A stretch of DNA of 62,083 bases from Candidatus Nanoarchaeia archaeon (GTDB lineage Archaea > Nanobdellota > Nanobdellia > Woesearchaeales > SM23-78), in assembly GCA_035289665.1 (NCBI GenBank), contig DATDWO010000071.1:1-62083 (forward strand), given 5' to 3'. Each line of letters begins with the position of its first letter. The stretch's first letter is position 1. Position numbers and translations under genes: made by a program. Positions 1-54,034 of this stretch are shown in pieces. Under the pieces are notes generated by a model. That model was not told where the DNA came from, made no database searches, and saw nothing but the letters and a program-made list of their open reading frames with translations.

Positions 1-65
1 AGCGTTTGTGAAATCCTGGGTGTTTTTCGAAAATTCTTTTAGAACTGCGGCTTTTTAGCATGATT

Positions 66-359
66 TCAGCGACTTGTACTGAATATTTTTTTGGAATGTC
101 GACTTGCAGGTGCACGTGATTTCCTCCGAATCCTATTTCTCGGCCCCTGCATGGGATAACGAGGCTGGCCAGAGCAACCGTATTTTTGCTCGTTTTGGTT
201 GAGAGTGGCTTCCAAACTTTCTAACTCTGTTTCTTGACTCTGAACTACCGCCTTCAACTCGATAATGTCTAGAGGCGATTCAGGTGTTGCCAGAGAGCTT
301 CTTGGGGGAGAACCAGCTAAGGATAAGGTCAATGCAAAAGGAAGTAAGCTTCTTTTCAT
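66..359 (-). CDS. hypothetical small protein (hydrophobic N-terminus, coiled-coil-like middle, Arg/Lys-rich tail)
   Basis: Internal Met (MKRSLLPFALTLSLAG...) of ORF 66..473 was chosen because the longer form runs into the scpA start region. No recognisable motif. Confidence 0.3.
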   Translation of the reverse strand: MKRSLLPFALTLSLAGSPPRSSLATPESPLDIIELKAVVQSQETELESLEATLNQNEQKYGCSGQPRYPMQGPRNRIRRKSRAPASRHSKKIFSTSR

Positions 360-5182: not shown

Positions 5183-5946
5183 TGGATAGAAACGAATTAT
5201 CTAAGTATCAGACTGTCCTTAACTTGAACCTGGGACAGCTTGATGTCGACTATTTCCAGCACCAAATCCTCCTTCTTCTTTCCAGAACCACTTCGAATGA
5301 GCTCGTCTTTAAAGGAGGAACGGCCCTAGCCAAAGCCTTCGGTTTGAGCCGCTTCTCTGAAGACCTGGATTTTACAGCCGTCAAGAAGATAGACCTAGGA
5401 AAAATCCTTGATCGAATCGTAACAGAGCTCAGAATCATGGGCACAACGACTGAAGCAAGCCCGATAGAGAAAAAAGAAGTCTCCACCACAGGCCGATTGC
5501 GCATCCAAGGTACTACATACGATGGGACTGAGCTATCCAAACTCTCCATTCATATGGATATTTCCACTCGAGAAAAAGTAATTCTTTCCCCCCTTTTCAT
5601 CGAAATTACGCCCCTCTATCAGGACTTGCAACCCTATACGCTTCTTGTCATGAAGCCGGAAGAAATCCTGGCCGAAAAAGTAAGGGCTTTGCTTACGCGA
5701 AACAAAGCAAGGGACCTATACGACCTCTATTTCTTACTCAACAAAAAAATACCACTAAATGTAAAACTCGCTCAGGAAAAACTTTCCTATTACAGGCAAG
5801 CCTTCAACCGAAAGAAGATGGAAGAAAAGATAGGCTTGCTGAAGAAATCCTGGAAAAACGAGCTGGAACCGCTCGTGCAGGATCTTCCCCCATTCGACCA
5901 AGTCAGGAAAGCAGTGCAAGATGCCATCCACAAATCATTTGGATAG
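5182..5946 (+). CDS. abiEii: AbiEii/AbiGii-family nucleotidyltransferase toxin (DUF1814-like)
   Basis: FKGGTALAKAFGLSRFSEDLDFT is typical of the AbiEii NTase family. Confidence 0.7.
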   Translation: MDRNELSKYQTVLNLNLGQLDVDYFQHQILLLLSRTTSNELVFKGGTALAKAFGLSRFSEDLDFTAVKKIDLGKILDRIVTELRIMGTTTEASPIEKKEVSTTGRLRIQGTTYDGTELSKLSIHMDISTREKVILSPLFIEITPLYQDLQPYTLLVMKPEEILAEKVRALLTRNKARDLYDLYFLLNKKIPLNVKLAQEKLSYYRQAFNRKKMEEKIGLLKKSWKNELEPLVQDLPPFDQVRKAVQDAIHKSFG

Positions 5947-5948
5947 GT

Positions 5949-6890
5949 CTACGCTCTCGGATACAAATTATACTTATGCTGCCGTTTGCTGTAAAAATAG
6001 CTCATACTGCTCAGTGTATCTTTAAATTGAGAGCGTAGCTCTCGCAGGAAGCTGTCCAAATCTGAAATAGAAGCTGCCACATAATAAATAAAGAGCGTGG
6101 GGCTATTCGCGCTCTTAAAACAGGCACGAATCTCTTTTTTACTGCGAAGATATTGAACCAGTCGCTGCTCTTCGTTAAAAAGGTGGAAATTCAGCCATAC
6201 AAAGTACATGTTCAGCCCAAGGACACCAACATTGATTTTGGCAAGGAAACGCCGGATGATCCCTGCTTCTTTGAGGTGCTTGATGCGTGCACTCACTGTT
6301 TCATACGTTAAACCGATCCGGTCAGCCATTTCTCGAAATTGAAGTGTAGCATTTTCGTCTAAAAGAGCAAGCAATTTATGATCGGTTTTATCAGGAACCA
6401 GTGTTGAAAAAGAAGAGGGTTTAGGAAGGTTTTCCGGGAAAAAATCTTTACGAATGGGGAGCATATTTTGAAAATAGAACTTAGCGACTTCATGAACTTG
6501 GTATTGGACAATGTTTTTGGAAAAGGGTTCTAGGATCTGATTTAAAAGGGCTGGGAAAAAATCATTGAGGGGGTGAGTCATTTCTAAGATCAGATCCCAG
6601 TCTCCACTGAGTTCATCCACAATGATGACAAAGGGCAACGCACAGAGATGTTGAATAAAAGTAGAAGTTTCTTCTTCCGTCATGCTCAGCTTCAAGAAAA
6701 GTTCCCGAGTGCAATAGTTAGGTAAATCAATTTGGGCAAAGTAACCTTGAATAAGCCCTTCGTGTTCCATGCGCTGAATCTTATAGTCCACCCCATTCTT
6801 ACTGAGGCTGACTTTTTTGCCGAGCTGAAGATGGCTGATCCGGCAGTCTTGAGTAAGCTCGTACAACTTGATATTTACCTGTTCGTTCAA
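5949..6890 (-). CDS. tandem Lrp/AsnC-type transcriptional regulator
   Basis: Two HTH-AsnC-like modules (LGKKVSLSKNGVDYKIQRMEHEGLIQGY and FREMADRIGLTYETVSARIKHLKEAGIIRRF). Confidence 0.6.
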   Translation of the reverse strand: MNEQVNIKLYELTQDCRISHLQLGKKVSLSKNGVDYKIQRMEHEGLIQGYFAQIDLPNYCTRELFLKLSMTEEETSTFIQHLCALPFVIIVDELSGDWDLILEMTHPLNDFFPALLNQILEPFSKNIVQYQVHEVAKFYFQNMLPIRKDFFPENLPKPSSFSTLVPDKTDHKLLALLDENATLQFREMADRIGLTYETVSARIKHLKEAGIIRRFLAKINVGVLGLNMYFVWLNFHLFNEEQRLVQYLRSKKEIRACFKSANSPTLFIYYVAASISDLDSFLRELRSQFKDTLSSMSYFYSKRQHKYNLYPRA

Positions 6891-15712: not shown

Positions 15713-18700
15713 ATGAACCGATATGGGACCTGTTTATGCTTGTTTCTAGTCTTGATTCTTTCAAGCGCCGTAGAAGGAACCACCTTCACAAAGCCGTTTG
15801 TATCTCCTTCGACAACGATCAACACAGACTCCTCATCCACCTGCATCGGTACATTTATCCCGGGTTGCAATGACCAACTCCAGTTCTTGAACGTCCCCAC
15901 AGGCAAGTATCAGGTCGTTTTTCGAGGAGGTTACTTTGTAAATCCGCCGGGTTTAGAAGAAGTACGAGTAGAGTTTACAGGCTCCAAAAGTCCAATTGTA
16001 ATTCCAGATCAGTACGATGGAAATGCCGATCCAAACCCGAACCATGAACCAATTAAGTTTTTCACTTCACCTCCCACTCAATCATTTGATGTAACAGTCT
16101 CGGGCCAAACTGTAACGTTAACGAATCAGCCCATTCCTCCTTCAAATGCAAGGTATTCAATCCAGGCAGAATTTGCAACCCTCACCCGGATCGGGAATGT
16201 TCCACAACTACCCACGATCAATGCGCCGAACATTAACCTTCCATGTACCGGAACGCAGACTCAAGTCACCTGGTCAAGTTTTGTTTCTGATCTAGACACA
16301 CCTCTTTCTTCTTTAACCTTCACTGCCGTTCAGGAGCCGCCCATCACGACTCCATTAACCATTTCCGTGGTTGGTTTTTTCGTGATCATCTCATACCCGG
16401 CCAATACCAACATCAATGAACGCATTCGTTACACGGTAAGAGACCCAGAAGGTAACAGTGCAACTCAAGTCATTACATTCACTGTAAGCGGTTGCGCTCC
16501 TCCAACTGGTTGCGGTTTAGTTGGGGGTTGCCCAGTAAGTTGTCCAGCAGGACAAGGCTGCATAGGTTCAACAACTGGAGGATGCGGTGGAACCTGCCAA
16601 CCCATCACAACCGGATGTGGTTCTTTCTCAAATTGTCAACAATTTTGCCAGCCAGGGTTTATCTGTACTGGCGCTTTCCCAAATGGATGCGGGGGAAGCT
16701 GTCAATTCAATCCTCAAGGGTGTGGCTTGGTCGCAGGTTGTAACACCTTTTGTCCTCAAGGCCAAACCTGTGTGGGTTCGACAACGGGCGGGTGCGGCGG
16801 AACCTGCCAACCCATCACAACCGGCTGCGGCTTCTTATCCAATTGCCAGCAACAATGTCCCAATGGGTTCATTTGCTCGGGTGCCACTTCAGGGGGATGC
16901 GGAGGAAACTGTCAACTCAATACGCAAGGGTGTGGTTTCATCAGTGGCTGCGGTCTTCTCTGTCCTACCGGTCAGACTTGTGTAAACTCAACATTGGGAG
17001 CTTGTGGAGGCATTTGTCAATCGACCACTCAAGGATGTGGCTTCTTATCCAATTGCCAGCAACAATGTCCCAATGGGTTCATTTGCTCGGGTGCCACTTC
17101 AGGGGGATGCGGAGGAAGCTGCCAATTTAATACACAAGGGTGTGGTCTAGTTGCAGGTTGTCAGCAATCTTGTCCAACGGGGTTTGTCTGTGCAGGCTCT
17201 ACAACCGGAGGGTGTGGCGGAACGTGTCAGCCTTCCAATCAAGGATGCGGCTTTGTAGCGGGTTGCTCGCTGTTGTGCAGTTTGGGACAAACCTGTGCAA
17301 ACTCAGTTCCAGGTTCATGTGGAGGAACCTGTTGTTTCGCTCCGCGCTGGGATGTCTCTCCACTGCCAACCGAAACCATCACGCCCGGACAGTTCTTCCA
17401 ATTATTTGACTTAGATGCCTTTACTACAGACCCTGACACCTTAGACAGTGGCTTAACCTACACGGTTTCAGGTCAAGTTCTTTTAACAGTTTTCATCGAC
17501 CCACTCACACATATTGTAAGCGTTAGTTATCCGCCAGGCCTACAGAGTTTGGACGAAACCTTGACATTTACAGTTTCAGATGGAGGGTGTGGCTCGGCAA
17601 CGGTAACGAAGCGTTTCATCGTCTCTCCAGGCAACACGTTAGGGTGTGGTTTCTTATCCAATTGTCAACAACTGTGTCCCAGCGGATTTACATGTTCAGG
17701 TGCTACTCCCGGAGGGTGCGGAGGAAACTGCATCCCATCTACAACCGGGTGCGGTCTAATTGCCGGCTGTCAACAACAATGCAGTTCAGGTTTCAACTGT
17801 GTAGGCTCCACAGCAGGAGGCTGCGGGGGCACCTGCCAACCTGCTTTATCAGGGTGCGGCCCAATCATCGGCTGTCAGGATCAATGTGCTACAGGATTTA
17901 CTTGCACAGGTTTCGCCCCGAATAGTTGTGGGGGCACATGCACTCAGAACAATGCCACAACCGGTTGCGGTGCTTTAACCAGTTGTCAACCACAATGTGC
18001 ACAGGGCTTTGTTTGCTCTAATTTCATGCCTGGAGGCTGTGGGGGGGTATGTATACCGATGAATACCACTGTAGGTTGCGGAGCACTTTCTACTTGCCAA
18101 AGCCCTTGCAGTTCAGGGACGACTTGTGTGGGCTTCATGCCAGGTGGTTGCGGAGGAACGTGTATGACCACTAACTCAGGGTGTGGCTCCATCGCAGGTT
18201 GTTCAGTAGTTTGTCCATCAGGGTTTACATGTTCAGGTTCTCAAACCAATGGTTGCGGAGGCTCTTGCATATCAATCAATAACACGCAAGGATGCGGCCT
18301 AGTTGCAGGTTGTGGTACAACCTGCGCAGTAGGCCAAACGTGTGTAAGTTATATACTAGGGGGATGCGGTGGAACATGTACAGGCAGTAATTGCACCCAA
18401 CCACCCATGCTGAGTCAAATACCGGATCAGATCAATAATTGCCAACAGCAGCTCCAAACCTTTGACTTGGATAACTTTGCAAACGACCCGGACAATACCG
18501 ACGACCAATTAACATTCAGTGTAACTGGAGGCAGTATACTCTTAGTCAGCATCGATCCAACAACGCATGTAGTTACCATCACTCATCCGATGAATCGGGA
18601 TCTTTCAGAGACCTTAACGTTTACAGTAAGAGATCCGTGCGGGAATACAGATTCAAGAACAGCTACTTTCAGCGTGAGAGGTTGTGGTTCCATGATCCCT

Positions 18701-19423
18701 CCTCCACCCTTTTTCCCTCCACAGTATCCTATGTTCCCGCCACCTTTGTTCGGCCCTTCTGAGTGTAAAATCAGTACAGGTCATGGTTTGCTCCTGGATG
18801 CGAATTGCAACCGTATTCCAGACATATTTGAAACAGCACAATTGCAAGTGGCACCGCAAGTTGAAGTGTCTAGGCAGGTAGTGCAGGAAGCTATAGTGAA
18901 AAAGGTGGCAACCGCGCCAAGAATACGTCAATTGAATTTCGCCACAGCAGAAGATCAGACTTCTAAAGTCTTGGTCCTAGAGAGTAGAGATGCTAGGAGT
19001 GGAGATAGCACGGTCTTCCCGATCAAGATAACAAATAATGGAGAGAGTACCCGAGCCTATCAAGTCTTTGCAGAAGGCACGGAGCCTTGGGGTACGTATG
19101 TGATGAGTGAGGGCAGTGTCCTTTTAATCCCTCCGCATCAATCGCGAGATTTAGAAATGAAAGTGTATGCGTATAAGTATGCCTCTCCAGGGGATAATGC
19201 CTTCCGATTGGTAGTGCGTTCAGGAGAAGATGAGGAAAAGACAGACTTGAAAGTGCACGTCCTTCCCTCCTTAGAAAGCGATGTCAACCCATGGATCATG
19301 AATTTATTAATGGCGTTTAGTACGTTGATCTTGATCAGCATAGTGGTCATTTTACTGCAGCGAAAAAGGTTTAAGCCTGTAAAGAAGGCCGCAAAGAGGG
19401 TGGCAAAGAGAAGGAATAGGTGA
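15713..19423 (+). CDS. giant cysteine-rich repeat surface protein (signal peptide, 3 Ig/cadherin-like modules, 15 six-Cys repeats, C-terminal TM anchor)
   Basis: Signal peptide MNRYGTCLCLFLVLILSSAVEG. Repeats follow GCGxxxxCxxxCxxGxxCxxxxxxxCGGxC. Modules end in TFTV(S/R)D. C-terminal TM LLMAFSTLILISIVVILL plus a basic tail. Confidence 0.85.
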   Translation: MNRYGTCLCLFLVLILSSAVEGTTFTKPFVSPSTTINTDSSSTCIGTFIPGCNDQLQFLNVPTGKYQVVFRGGYFVNPPGLEEVRVEFTGSKSPIVIPDQYDGNADPNPNHEPIKFFTSPPTQSFDVTVSGQTVTLTNQPIPPSNARYSIQAEFATLTRIGNVPQLPTINAPNINLPCTGTQTQVTWSSFVSDLDTPLSSLTFTAVQEPPITTPLTISVVGFFVIISYPANTNINERIRYTVRDPEGNSATQVITFTVSGCAPPTGCGLVGGCPVSCPAGQGCIGSTTGGCGGTCQPITTGCGSFSNCQQFCQPGFICTGAFPNGCGGSCQFNPQGCGLVAGCNTFCPQGQTCVGSTTGGCGGTCQPITTGCGFLSNCQQQCPNGFICSGATSGGCGGNCQLNTQGCGFISGCGLLCPTGQTCVNSTLGACGGICQSTTQGCGFLSNCQQQCPNGFICSGATSGGCGGSCQFNTQGCGLVAGCQQSCPTGFVCAGSTTGGCGGTCQPSNQGCGFVAGCSLLCSLGQTCANSVPGSCGGTCCFAPRWDVSPLPTETITPGQFFQLFDLDAFTTDPDTLDSGLTYTVSGQVLLTVFIDPLTHIVSVSYPPGLQSLDETLTFTVSDGGCGSATVTKRFIVSPGNTLGCGFLSNCQQLCPSGFTCSGATPGGCGGNCIPSTTGCGLIAGCQQQCSSGFNCVGSTAGGCGGTCQPALSGCGPIIGCQDQCATGFTCTGFAPNSCGGTCTQNNATTGCGALTSCQPQCAQGFVCSNFMPGGCGGVCIPMNTTVGCGALSTCQSPCSSGTTCVGFMPGGCGGTCMTTNSGCGSIAGCSVVCPSGFTCSGSQTNGCGGSCISINNTQGCGLVAGCGTTCAVGQTCVSYILGGCGGTCTGSNCTQPPMLSQIPDQINNCQQQLQTFDLDNFANDPDNTDDQLTFSVTGGSILLVSIDPTTHVVTITHPMNRDLSETLTFTVRDPCGNTDSRTATFSVRGCGSMIPPPPFFPPQYPMFPPPLFGPSECKISTGHGLLLDANCNRIPDIFETAQLQVAPQVEVSRQVVQEAIVKKVATAPRIRQLNFATAEDQTSKVLVLESRDARSGDSTVFPIKITNNGESTRAYQVFAEGTEPWGTYVMSEGSVLLIPPHQSRDLEMKVYAYKYASPGDNAFRLVVRSGEDEEKTDLKVHVLPSLESDVNPWIMNLLMAFSTLILISIVVILLQRKRFKPVKKAAKRVAKRRNR
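16508..17335 (+). repeat. Cys-repeat block 1 (8 units of ~35 aa)
   Basis: Units such as GCGLVGGCPVSCPAGQGCIGSTTGGCGGTCQPITT. Includes a perfect 79-bp duplication, 16829-16907 = 17039-17117. Confidence 0.9.
17642..18394 (+). repeat. Cys-repeat block 2 (7 units of ~35-37 aa)
   Basis: Units such as GCGFLSNCQQLCPSGFTCSGATPGGCGGNCIPSTT. Confidence 0.9.
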
Positions 19424-22088: not shown

Positions 22089-22120
22089 CCCGGGGAGGGC
22101 TTCGGCTCTCCTTGGGTTTT
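22089..22120 (+). terminator. 12-bp hairpin with UUCG loop followed by a T-run
   Basis: cccggggagggc-ttcg-gctctccttggg then tttt. The three G:T pairs work only for the + strand RNA. Confidence 0.45.
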
Positions 22121-22451
22121 ATCTTTCCAGAACTCTTTCCAAGTCCTCTCGAGTAAGATCGGCTTGCTTAAGTATGCTTAGAAGCGTTCCCTTTTTTAAT
22201 TCTGAGTGCATGGGCACTACAGGCTTTCTTGTCAAGAACCGCCTATTAAGGAGGGAACATAAAATAGCGGTTCTTGAGCATGTTCAGAAATTTCCAGCTA
22301 TCCAAAAAACAGACTGATGGAAATTTCTGACATTTCATCCCATTGCGATAACCAACCATAATGACATGGCTTCCTTTCTGATCGAGAGCTTCAAAGCCAA
22401 ATTTGGAAAGAATTTGACCATTTCTTTACCAGAGAGAAGAGGAAGTTTCAT
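22119..22451 (-). pseudogene. hicA: hicA toxin pseudogene (1-nt frameshift plus 103-bp insertion)
   Basis: The ATG overlaps the hicB stop (ATGA). Reads MKLPLLSGKEMVKFFP, then a frameshift in a 3-nt run (plus ttt 22402-22404), then KFGFEALDQKGSHVIMVGYRNGMK. The insertion at 22230-22332 follows, then RKPVVPMHSELKKGTLLSILKQADLTREDLERVLER-stop. Confidence 0.7.
22230..22332. mobile_element. two-hairpin miniature element, copy A (inside hicA)
   Basis: TGTCA...TGACA termini. Hairpin 1 is 22232-22242 / 22267-22277, linker gcatgt, hairpin 2 is 22284-22295 / 22319-22330. Removing exactly 103 bp restores the hicA frame. Confidence 0.6.
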
Positions 22452-29700: not shown

Positions 29701-31119
29701 TTATTTTACTCGTCTTCCATAACCCAGTTCTTCTGAGCGCAAGTGATAGGCATCACAACAAGCCTTGATCGTCTCCTCCAAAGATCCTCGCTCTTTAGGA
29801 TTGAACTGCAATGTCCGAGCAAGAATCGGCTGCAATCGAGAAGGCATTCCAGTCCAATTAATGTCTCCTCGAACCCATTTAGTGAATGTTCTATTGCGAA
29901 GGCCTTCATAGAGTTCATTGATGAATTCTCTTTCAACTCGATCGGCAAATGTTTGGTAAGCAAGATCTCCCTGACGATCAGGTCTCATAGTGCTTAATAG
30001 TCGTAAGTACTCTGGGTCTTGAGTAAAAGAGGTGGCGATAAGGGCCAAGGCGTAAGTTTTGGACTCTTGAATGTCTTCGTCTGTGTAGCCATAAGGGAGA
30101 GAGATTTCTCCAGGCTGAGCGCAGGTTTTCGCAAGGGCATAACCCACCGATCCCACAGAGGGTAAATCACTAAAGGTTCCTAGGTGAAGTTTAGAAACTT
30201 TTTGGCCTAAATCTCTTACACCCTGATCGCCTGGATGTCGTCTTACATTGTCAATTAAAAGTCTTCCATTTCGAGCCAAGAAAAGGCCTTCTGGGGGCAT
30301 GTAAGGTACGGATCCACGAAGTCCTTCTCTGAATCGAGGGGTAACTGGTGAAAGGAGCTCCACAATGTCCAGATCTCCTAAGACAAAATAGTTAAAATAT
30401 CCGCCATCCTTTACGCCAAATAAATTATCTAATTTTACATCGTTATGAACATATCCTCTTGTTTTTTTGGCAAGATTTGTGCCTGCTCTTTGTAGTACAA
30501 AGAGTCCTTCACAAATGTCGATAATGGCCCGAGCAACGGTTTCTTCATCAAAGCGAGCGCCATTAAGAACTGCAGATTTTAAATCAGGCGACGTTTGGGG
30601 GTCCATGCATTCAAGTAAGAATTCATAGCTTGGGGCTCTTCCTTCACCAGGACCTTGGAGGTGAGAATCATAACAAGTGAGTATCTTCGGGTGCGCTCGA
30701 GTAACAGCCATGAGTAAGTTTTGTAGTCTTGCATGTGGCTCGTGCCAGGGAAGTTTATATTTTTTATAAAAATACCTTTTTCCATCCGAAGATTCTACCA
30801 AGCAGATCTCTGTATCTGGATCACGTTTTCTAACATCTGATACCGTATAAGGTTTCCCTTTGAATATGATTTGATTAGAAGAAGTAGCTGGTGTTTCTTC
30901 CACCGTAACCAAACTAGCAACATCTCGAGTCACACAGTTTTTATCTTCTCCTTCTTGAAACACAGTGGGACCGGCTCGAGTTCGTTCAATCATAAGAGCA
31001 AATCGTTCAGCCTCAGCAGGGGACAAATGAAATTGAGTCCTAAATTCATCTACTTGAGCAGCAACACGTGTAGCAAAAAAATCTTGTGCAGGATTTGGAG
31101 GTGCCATAAAAGAAAGCAA
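29701..31119 (-). CDS. eukaryotic-like Ser/Thr protein kinase domain protein
   Basis: YVHNDVKLDN is a HxDxKxxN catalytic loop. LGDLD is DFG-like, VPYMPPE is APE-like, and LQFNPKERGSLEE resembles subdomain XI. Confidence 0.7.
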   Translation of the reverse strand: MLSFMAPPNPAQDFFATRVAAQVDEFRTQFHLSPAEAERFALMIERTRAGPTVFQEGEDKNCVTRDVASLVTVEETPATSSNQIIFKGKPYTVSDVRKRDPDTEICLVESSDGKRYFYKKYKLPWHEPHARLQNLLMAVTRAHPKILTCYDSHLQGPGEGRAPSYEFLLECMDPQTSPDLKSAVLNGARFDEETVARAIIDICEGLFVLQRAGTNLAKKTRGYVHNDVKLDNLFGVKDGGYFNYFVLGDLDIVELLSPVTPRFREGLRGSVPYMPPEGLFLARNGRLLIDNVRRHPGDQGVRDLGQKVSKLHLGTFSDLPSVGSVGYALAKTCAQPGEISLPYGYTDEDIQESKTYALALIATSFTQDPEYLRLLSTMRPDRQGDLAYQTFADRVEREFINELYEGLRNRTFTKWVRGDINWTGMPSRLQPILARTLQFNPKERGSLEETIKACCDAYHLRSEELGYGRRVK

Positions 31120-31230
31120 AGGAAAATCTATTTATAAACCTTACTATTTTTAACCACTAATAAGTAACTAATGAAAACCATACAACCCACCAAATCCCCC
31201 ATTTTCTCGTCGACAACTCCGTCGACGGTA

Positions 31231-31320
31231 TGTCAAGAATCGCCAAATAAATATCATAGCGATTCTTGAGCATGTTCAGAACTCCACTCAATTTCAATCC
31301 TAAAAAGTGGAGTTATGACA
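31231..31320. mobile_element. two-hairpin miniature element, copy B (upstream of gyrB)
   Basis: Same architecture as copy A, TG-[tcaagaatcgc...gcgattcttga]-gcatgt-[tcagaactccac...gtggagttatga]-CA. Stem changes are compensatory relative to copy A. Confidence 0.6.
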
Positions 31321-31335
31321 TCACAAGTTATATAA

Positions 31336-34674
<3,339 letters not shown>

Positions 34675-53680: not shown

Positions 53681-53696
53681 AAGGTTTATAATCCTT
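53681..53696. promoter_or_regulatory. near-palindromic TATA-like box, potentially bidirectional
   Basis: aaggtttataatcctt lies 18-35 nt upstream of the minus-strand ATG (53663). It also lies ~25-30 nt upstream of the first hairpins on the + strand. Confidence 0.4.
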
Positions 53697-53701
53697 AGTA
53701 A

Positions 53702-53982
53702 CAAAAATCAGTGATTTTTGGAACAAAGAAATCCAATTCGGATTTCTTGTTCGAGAAGTGCCGTGCACTTCTCTGAACCAACAGAAATGCATAGCATTTC
53801 TGTGGCCCAAAAAGCGTAGCTTTTTGAGGCTTCCAAAAATTTCGTGCTAAAGCGCACAGAAAGGCCGTAGTCTTTCTGGCGCGCACAAGAGCAGCGCTCT
53901 TGGCGCAATAGGAACCATGTTCCTTTTTGCGCCAGAAACTGCTGTTTCTGAGCGCACGAAACTTTAAACCACGAAATTTTTG
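53702..53982 (+). ncRNA. candidate structured RNA / hairpin array (about 10 abutting hairpins); strand and transcription unproven
   Basis: Hairpins at 53702-20, 53721-52, 53753-73, 53778-805 and 53808-26. A 13-bp long-range stem, 53834-46 / 53970-82, encloses four GCGC-clamped hairpins (53852-82, 53881-906, 53902-33, 53929-55). The region ends in a T5 run. Confidence 0.4.
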
Positions 53983-54034
53983 TTAGGAGGAAAGCTTTAT
54001 AAGCCGGTTTCCTGTTTCTATAGATAGGTATAGG

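Follow-up and report, generated by a model that had tools for sequence, protein, structure and literature searches.

A hairpin-doublet family in Woesearchaeota-like archaea that appears to be mobile and to maintain stem pairing rather than stem sequence

Introduction

Upstream of the gyrB gene of a Woesearchaeota-like archaeon lies a pair of hairpins that recurs, with altered stems, elsewhere on the same contig, and this raises the question of whether such hairpins persist because the host uses them or because they belong to a mobile element. The first-pass annotation of the window (the whole 62,083-nt stretch of DNA analysed here) favoured use by the host. It held that preservation of structure rather than sequence is not what a recently copied MITE shows, and that the hairpins themselves are selected, either as a recognition structure for a protein or as an RNA.

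The genomes of DPANN archaea are small and streamlined, and the mobile DNA in them has hardly been studied. In one Woesearchaeal genome, an automated survey counted approximately 105 MITEs per Mb, which were noted but not described (PMC11602168). The present window is archaeal by its aRF-1, its archaeal SerRS and its PINA-like ATPase; a Woesearchaeota locus (L009) encodes a homologue that shares 57% identity with one of the window's proteins, and the window sequence is present in groundwater and soil metagenome runs.

Results

Two copies of one element

The two copies of the element in the window, here called A and B (Table 1), agree at their termini (TGTCA/TGACA), at the base of each hairpin and over a 19-nt linker, and are 70% identical in a global alignment. 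The window contains the 19-mer TTCTTGAGCATGTTCAGAA at 22271 and 31263 and nowhere else, whereas shuffled sequence gave 0.06 matches and none of 100 shuffles contained two or more. Upon folding, each copy forms two hairpins on either strand (z of -5.5 to -6.6), with equally stable folds in 0 of 200 shuffles. At 2 copies per 62 kb, A and B are diverged members of different sublineages of one family.

Table 1. Positions of the two element copies, their flanks and associated genes in the window.
Feature	Position	Strand	Remarks
IS200-like Y1 (HUH) transposase fragment	1..141	-	PF01797 24.1 bits, cut-off 23; HUH motif HVH
hicA toxin pseudogene, split by copy A	22119..22451	-	frame restored on removal of 22230-22332
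Copy A of the element	22230..22332	+	103 nt; covariance model 30.2 bits, E 2.5e-5
Copy A, layout	hairpin 1 arms 22232-22242 / 22267-22277; linker 22278-22283; hairpin 2 arms 22284-22295 / 22319-22330		
Target-side flank of copy A, TTTCAT	22333..22338	+	within hicA coding sequence
Copy B of the hairpin-doublet element	31231..31320	+	90 nt; covariance model 32.3 bits, E 7.7e-6
Copy B, layout	TGTCA; hairpin 1 arms 31233-31243 / 31259-31269; linker GCATGT 31270-31275; hairpin 2 arms 31276-31287 / 31307-31318; CA		
Target-side flank of copy B, TCACAA..., then gyrB TATA-like box TTATATAAAG (31328-31337)	31321..31337	+	
gyrB	31432..34674	+	1080 aa, intein-containing, downstream of copy B

Most of what the first-pass annotation had read from these two copies was borne out. 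The end of copy B lies 111 nt from the gyrB ATG, the termini, hairpin base and linker are shared as described, and the paired C:G to T:A change between the hairpin 1 stems of A and B was verified. The upper stem of hairpin 2 is indeed exchanged (atttcc/ggaaat in A, ctccac/gtggag in B); near its base, hairpin 2 of copy B carries one G/A mismatch. Both loops had been called unrelated, which overlooks a similarity in the 3′ part of loop 1 (ATA..ATAGCG), and the other copy exists as reported but begins at 22230 rather than 22231.

Rfam 15 gave no match over the window at gathering thresholds; around copy B, the sole match (mir-145) was at chance level, with 22 bits against a 50-bit threshold. A literature search with the linker sequence returned unrelated PCR primers only.

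Copy B ends 7 nt upstream of a TATA-like box for gyrB, and we infer that it was inserted into the space that separates two divergent promoters, close to this box on its upstream side. For annotation purposes, the element accounts for an extra 90 nt of the gyrB upstream region.

Three other features of this region were observed. The length of the gyrB product is accounted for by an intein (Intein_splicing at residues 452-877, with a weak HNH_3 signal), which sits before the Toprim domain. Between the TATA-like box and the ATG, a perfect 10-bp hairpin (AAATACTTCG ... CGAAGTATTT, with a 10-nt loop) at 31375-31404 probably lies in the gyrB leader; it lacks the tags and matches the element model weakly (16 bits, E 0.067). 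Upstream of the divergent kinase-like gene, contig depth rises approximately ten-fold (to about 100) over an AT-rich stretch at 31110-31191, within which some 35 nt (31131-31167) are common to a few contigs per run (4 to 9 by listed loose ends) at 85-90% identity and occur only once in the window. These shared nucleotides may be a promoter or leader motif or a low-complexity artefact.

A wider family of hairpin doublets

A gapped pattern matched 93 further stretches in a metagenome scan, and a scan of genome collections with the 19-mer linker found true copies in two Woesearchaeota MAGs and in one Methanosarcinales-labelled MAG. The contig names of the family loci point to several different samples, including a set labelled Hain-H43. 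The family is large, resident in groundwater DPANN-type (Woesearchaeota-like) archaea and apparently undescribed. Matches of the 19-mer in Bifidobacterium, Pseudoalteromonas and most other genomes lay in coding DNA and were dismissed as chance, only those in the archaeal MAGs being real; the 58 degenerate-linker matches in viral contigs were all chance as well, so the element is not viral.

From this material 66 distinct full elements of 68-205 nt were extracted, with a median pairwise identity of 63%. Their architecture is that of a near two-fold-symmetric hairpin doublet: TGTCA, stem-loop 1, TGAGCATG(N)TCA, stem-loop 2 and TGACA. Across the 66, the stretches TGTCAA.AA, TT.TTGAGCATG.TCA and TGACA show little or no variation, and the linker TGAGCATG(N)TCA is constant save at one position, although this invariance is partly imposed by the search pattern, which left only the TGACA end and the hairpin interiors free to vary. 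The terminal inverted repeats (TGTCAA(R)AA... and ...TT(Y)TGACA) are conserved, the upper stems and loops are free, and the loops vary from 15 to 60 nt. In several copies, the linker is the perfect palindrome TGAGCATGCTCA, which makes the element a near two-fold-symmetric dimer of TG-TCA-hairpin-TGA-CA units. Solo hairpins are rare, and their rarity fits a dimeric protein that needs both hairpins.

Clustering of approximately 1000 adjacent ORFs revealed no recurrent neighbour gene; one large cluster proved to be an artefact of inteins and P-loop ATPases.

Within the family, the apical loop motif CTAAAG was seen in 28 of 132 hairpin interiors, closed by different stems, and is absent from both window copies. 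In one subfamily (e.g., L074, L078, L093 and L101) the hairpins are compound, consisting of a lower stem, a small internal loop with G-C-R-T-G on its 3′ side, an upper stem and a C-TAAA-G loop. In five other loci (L089, L106, L136, L142 and L152), the element lies within a larger conserved block of about 250 nt, with some 100 nt to its left that include a GTGAAACTCCCCAC...GTGGGGCAT hairpin (with a 27-nt indel) and some 60 nt to its right. The block recurs in three genomic contexts, among which the interior of hairpin 2 differs. Three of these loci (L089, L106 and L142), considered as orthologous copies, were found to be paralogous through this block and hence unusable for following evolution in place.

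Stem pairing is kept while stem sequence changes

Ten stem positions beyond each TCA/TGA were aligned without gaps for 56 distinct elements of the 66, the positions being set from the anchors and not fitted to structure. Paired bases occupied 89.1% of stem cells, compared with 72.4% after shuffling (0 of 500 shuffles reached the observed value) and 35-50% when partners were slid. Cells changed on both sides numbered 296, against 112 in shuffles and 58-70 with slid partners, and the covariation score was 0.478, against 0.167 and 0.075-0.119, respectively. Both-sided changes were found in 17 of 26 pairs, with four or five pair types at several positions; at the position that the search pattern left free on both sides, there were 39 G:C pairs, 17 A:U pairs and no mismatch. 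Stem positions 8-11 differ among subfamilies and are complementary within each hairpin.

The claim of the first-pass annotation that structure is kept rather than sequence, drawn from two copies, thus holds over 56 distinct members: many further copies exist, and their stem substitutions are compensated. These data show that the tags, the linker and stem pairing alone are conserved in the element, and they indicate that pairing, not sequence, is what is maintained. At well-paired positions, G:T and A:C mismatches are about equally frequent (17 and 12), so neither strand is singled out as an RNA.

Covariation in a palindrome can also arise by templated correction between its arms, without selection. 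On such an account, compensation would be mechanical: either template switching between the arms would produce it when a quasi-palindrome is replicated or repaired, or nested insertions and deletions would exchange whole hairpin tops. This account would suit the block-wise replacement of upper stem and loop between copies, the nested insertions into loops and linker, and those paralogues that have an identical hairpin 1 and differ mainly in the interior of hairpin 2. However, up to five pair types occur per position and pairing is kept across lineages at approximately 63% identity, the unpaired loops of 15-60 nt stay unconverted to stem, and the conserved tags and linker indicate purifying selection on the element. 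We therefore consider a purely mechanical origin very unlikely.

Copy A interrupts a toxin gene precisely

Copy A splits a hicA toxin gene. Deletion of exactly 22230-22332 fuses ...GSHVIMVGYRNGMK with RKPVVPMHSELKKGTLLSILKQ... in frame on the minus strand, and no deletion other than that of the element alone restores the reading frame. The gene is doubly inactivated, as its 5′ end carries a second lesion, a 1-nt frameshift in an A-run near codon 14; once copy A is removed and the frameshift mended, the protein matches the whole HicA_toxin profile without a break (positions 1-58 of 58; 60.6 bits). An obvious hicB partner was not found adjacent to hicA. The hicA pseudogene can thus be annotated as the result of element insertion.

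The corresponding empty site was found in a 210-nt contig of a groundwater run (X2), where a diverged hicA homologue aligns to 22229 and resumes at 22333. It skips exactly the 103 nt 22230-22332, which end TG..CA, with an ambiguity of 1 nt. This contig places the element boundaries at TGTCA...TGACA to within 1 nt and without target-site duplication, and no flanking direct repeats were present among 65 flank pairs. The element therefore inserts precisely and does not duplicate its target site.

Further signs of movement come from other loci. An identical 123-nt element lies between different flanks in two of them (L090 and L107), with a one-base variant at a third site (L116). Nested copies were found in L006, L078/L123, L125 and L162, and tandem copies, which form TGACATGTCA junctions, in L161 and L164. 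Taken together, these observations make it almost certain that the element is mobile and non-autonomous. The contrast drawn with a MITE was accordingly overturned: the split hicA, the precise empty site and the identical 123-nt copies at different loci are those of a mobile, MITE-like insertion, and a conserved structure with changing sequence, being a property of a transposing family, is no evidence against one.

The element inserts beside a one-sided target

The flanks of the element are markedly unequal. On the hairpin 2 (right) side they hold approximately 2.9 bits, with T at +1 in 59 of 65, T at +3 and A at +5/+6, compared with approximately 0.6 bits on the left. Insertion is immediately 5′ of T-N-T-N-A-A, a motif similar to TGTCAA, with which the element itself begins on the left. 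On the opposite strand, TT-N-A-N-A (TTGATA, TTGACA, TTTAAA or TTTATA) stands on the 5′ side of the element, which ends (C/T)TTGACA; the target of ISDra2 is TTGAT. Because the TTTCAT that flanks copy A is coding sequence of hicA, the motif belongs to the target and not to the element. That the target mimics the element's own end accounts for the tandem arrays and for insertions into other copies.

These features would also be expected if a site-specific recombinase (IS110/IS1111 with a bridge or seek RNA, an IS607-type serine recombinase, or another enzyme) joined a circular TGACA|TGTCAA junction to TGTCAA-like cores. Target duplication would then be absent, the target would resemble the left end as an imperfect core shared by the recombining sites, and tandem copies would show the junctions described above. 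However, the target is degenerate (approximately 3 bits) when compared with the long, specific targets of the IS110 type, no such gene was seen beside any copy, and the need for stem pairing is left unexplained. We regard this alternative as unlikely.

Many copies abut a TATA-like sequence 8-40 nt upstream of a start codon. The right-hand gene points away from the element at 32 copies and towards it at 18, and both orientations of element relative to gene occur; a test of orientation against GC skew for lagging-strand bias gave a weak bias that is not significant (29:17, p = 0.10). The flank motif is also found outside promoters, inside hicA and inside other elements. These neighbourhoods bear on the reading that the first-pass annotation preferred, in which mobility is secondary and the hairpins are selected for a host function, either within a structured RNA (5′ UTR, 3′ UTR or small RNA) or as sites close to promoters that bind a protein or form a cruciform. 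Strong covariation, the closeness of many copies to TATA-like boxes, the direction of neighbouring genes and the recurrent CTAAAG loop could each be understood in this way, and bacterial REP doublets with conserved spacers are known to have been co-opted (PMC3733652). Against it, copy A lies inside a coding gene and destroys it, copies face both ways relative to genes, G:T mismatches are not in excess over A:C, Rfam offers no match, and the flank motif recurs in contexts other than promoters. A host function as the primary reason for the hairpins consequently seems improbable to us.

Among specific RNA classes, H/ACA, C/D-box and bulge-helix-bulge structures were suggested by the ACA and CUGA-like ends, considered by eye and rejected: TCA/TGA pairing is canonical, there is no conserved pocket or K-turn, and the copies are insertions.

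Candidate transposases

IS200/IS605 is the most widespread IS family in archaea (PMC13343696), and the window itself begins with a fragment of an IS200-like Y1 transposase gene (Table 1). The N-terminal part of this fragment (approximately 49 aa) is missing or replaced, and the C-terminal part is truncated where the window ends. Over 46 aa, the fragment shares 83% identity with a 159-aa Y1 protein encoded at 5650-6129 of another locus (L175). An intact Y1_Tnp gene (345-813) was found approximately 290 nt from an element, on one side only, in L131. This gene has 391 homologues in many contigs, most of them very short, and the best 120 are at least 70% identical; IS200-like transposases of this type (L131, L167-L182) are highly conserved and very abundant in groundwater and marine archaeal metagenomes. 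One identical Y1 protein occurs in at least four flank combinations, which shows that the gene belongs to a multi-copy IS.

The ends of this IS carry hairpins of their own (CCGGTCTTTGACCGG, of the type CCGGTC-TTT-GACCGG), and its right end reads ...GTTTGAC, of which ...TTTGAC is similar to the ...TTGAC(A) of the element. With the family covariance model, no element copies were found near Y1 genes in 75 kb except in L131, so that the adjacency in L131 may be due to chance. Given the different end hairpins and the lack of elements near other members of its family, we do not take the L131 transposase to be the mobiliser. The DNA examined contained no transposase gene with TGTCA-type hairpins on its flanks.

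A classical cut-and-paste MITE would instead be moved by a DDE transposase that reads the inverted termini of about 10 bp (TGTCAAGAAC...GTTCTTGACA) as double-stranded DNA, the hairpins being a by-product of repeat-loop-repeat units. In favour of this reading, ends of the DDE and retroviral-integrase type typically read TG...CA, as those of the element do, its inverted termini are conserved, and one related contig (L176) has a DDE_Tnp_1 gene; within approximately 650 kb of loci and the window, no parent IS with the element's termini and a DDE transposase was found. Against it, the sole precise empty site shows no target-site duplication, and the target preference is one-sided; stem positions 8-11 covary, which a transposase that binds double-stranded DNA would not need; and no part of the element is more conserved than its internal linker, while solo hairpins are rare. 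Movement by a DDE enzyme is for these reasons highly doubtful.

Other repeats in the window

For a hairpin array at 53702-53982, the first-pass annotation had suggested membership of one genome-wide family with copies A and B. A motif search found neither the TGTCA/TGACA tags nor the linker there, and the array scores only 7-11 bits (E of 1 or more). Since the family model finds copies A and B at E of about 1e-5 and the array at E of 1.1 or above, the array is not a member of the family. It is intergenic (53690-54000) and comprises 8-9 hairpins with loops of 3-5 nt in approximately 300 nt; this region folds at -141.8 kcal/mol (z = -13.4), and nothing in Rfam matches it. In other long contigs of the same metagenomes, 128 nt of the array (53713-53840) recur at approximately 86% identity, and variants skip 102 nt (53852-53953) or 48 nt (53881-53928). 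The array could be a modular hairpin repeat in its own right or an RNA of unknown type.

An ORF of 1236 aa at 15713-19423 is repetitive in another way, with a period of 210 nt (70 aa), many GGATGCGG / TGT (Cys/Gly) motifs and repeat families D1-D5. It probably encodes a repetitive surface protein.

Discussion

The hairpins upstream of gyrB are best understood as one copy of a mobile family, and what is maintained across that family offers an indication of how it might move. Insertion without duplication, a one-sided target that mimics the opposite terminus, paired stems and a symmetric linker are together the signature of known families moved by HUH Y1 enzymes, and because of them we favour the reading that the family is mobilised, as folded single-stranded DNA, by a hairpin-recognising enzyme of this kind. 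By analogy with those families, we put the probability of this full statement at roughly 50%. Against it count the failure to find a cognate transposase gene in the DNA examined, the different end hairpins of the Y1 IS, the position of the element's hairpins directly at its ends, the non-significant orientation bias, the lack of reported RAYT/REP systems in archaea (PMC6006769) and the possibility that covariation in palindromes arises without selection. Maintained pairing would mean that the element must be recognised folded and single-stranded, in a "peel-and-paste" transposition like that of IS200/IS605 or REP/RAYT. A dimeric HUH tyrosine (Y1) transposase, acting in trans, could bind both hairpins and cut at CA|TG junctions, and the excised circle would carry the junction ...TTCTGACA|TGTCAAGAA....

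A bolder extension is that the family is the first archaeal counterpart of bacterial REPIN/RAYT: hairpin-doublet replicators, spread through DPANN archaea, whose movement as single-stranded DNA would be catalysed by a new kind of enzyme or by an HUH enzyme still to be linked with them. Their preference for TATA-like targets would place copies at core promoters, where they could alter BRE/TFB contacts and the expression of genes including gyrB. We offer this only tentatively, as a possibility that is rather less likely than not to hold in full.

A family of this kind, which combines structure and short tags with duplication-free insertion and accumulation at promoters, would extend REP/REPIN-type biology to archaea and would point to a single-stranded DNA transposition activity in these organisms. 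Its covarying hairpins also provide a natural set for studying enzymes that read shape over sequence.

Comparison with known systems places the element closer to some than to others. Like classical TIR MITEs (Correia/NEMIS and IS630-derived), it is small, non-coding, mostly intergenic and multi-copy, with inverted termini, but it differs from them in the absence of a target-site duplication, the one-sided target, the covarying stems and the conserved internal linker. The attC sites of integrons are similar in that they favour structure over sequence, with short boxes at the base, a hypervariable centre of varying length and recognition as folded single-stranded DNA. Nevertheless, the element has other boxes and no integrase or cassette context, and its copies are dispersed and solitary, so that the analogy is one of principle only.

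The likeness to IS200/IS605 and to its non-autonomous PATEs in Haloquadratum (PMC3119063) goes further, as these have a hairpin at each end, do not duplicate the target site and insert beside a short conserved motif on one side only, which for the present element reads TTNANA (e.g., TTGATA) on the other strand. Genes for Y1 transposases are likewise present in the same organisms. On the other hand, an almost perfect two-fold symmetry about a conserved palindromic linker relates the two halves of the element, and in the DNA examined no parent IS had matching ends, the end hairpins of the Y1 ISs (L131 and L175) being different. The placement of the hairpins also sets the two apart. In elements of the IS608 type, the hairpins stand 10-19 nt from the cleavage sites with guide bases between, and IS200/IS605 hairpins are in general subterminal, whereas those of the present element abut its termini.

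Finally, bacterial REP doublets (BIMEs and REPINs, associated with the RAYT/TnpA-REP Y1 enzymes) share with the element short palindromic units with a conserved terminal tag. These units are usually inverted dimers with a conserved spacer, in which stems and loops vary while pairing is kept (PMC3733652). They too are mostly intergenic, occasionally inside genes, occur in clusters and tandem groups, and are presumed to be recognised as single-stranded hairpins. The tags of the element are TGTCA...TGACA and not GTAG or CGTC, and each half folds alone into a hairpin whose loop is long and variable (15-60 nt). In the DNA examined, the repeats were not seen to flank a single-copy RAYT gene, a Y1 gene being near a copy only in the one-sided case of L131. 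Among the complete genomes of a published survey, those of archaea yielded no RAYT-type proteins, and IS200-type Y1 only was reported from them (PMC6006769). With these differences, the element would appear to be much like the bacterial REP doublets in the property that first drew attention to it, namely that the shape of its hairpins is kept while the sequences of their stems change.
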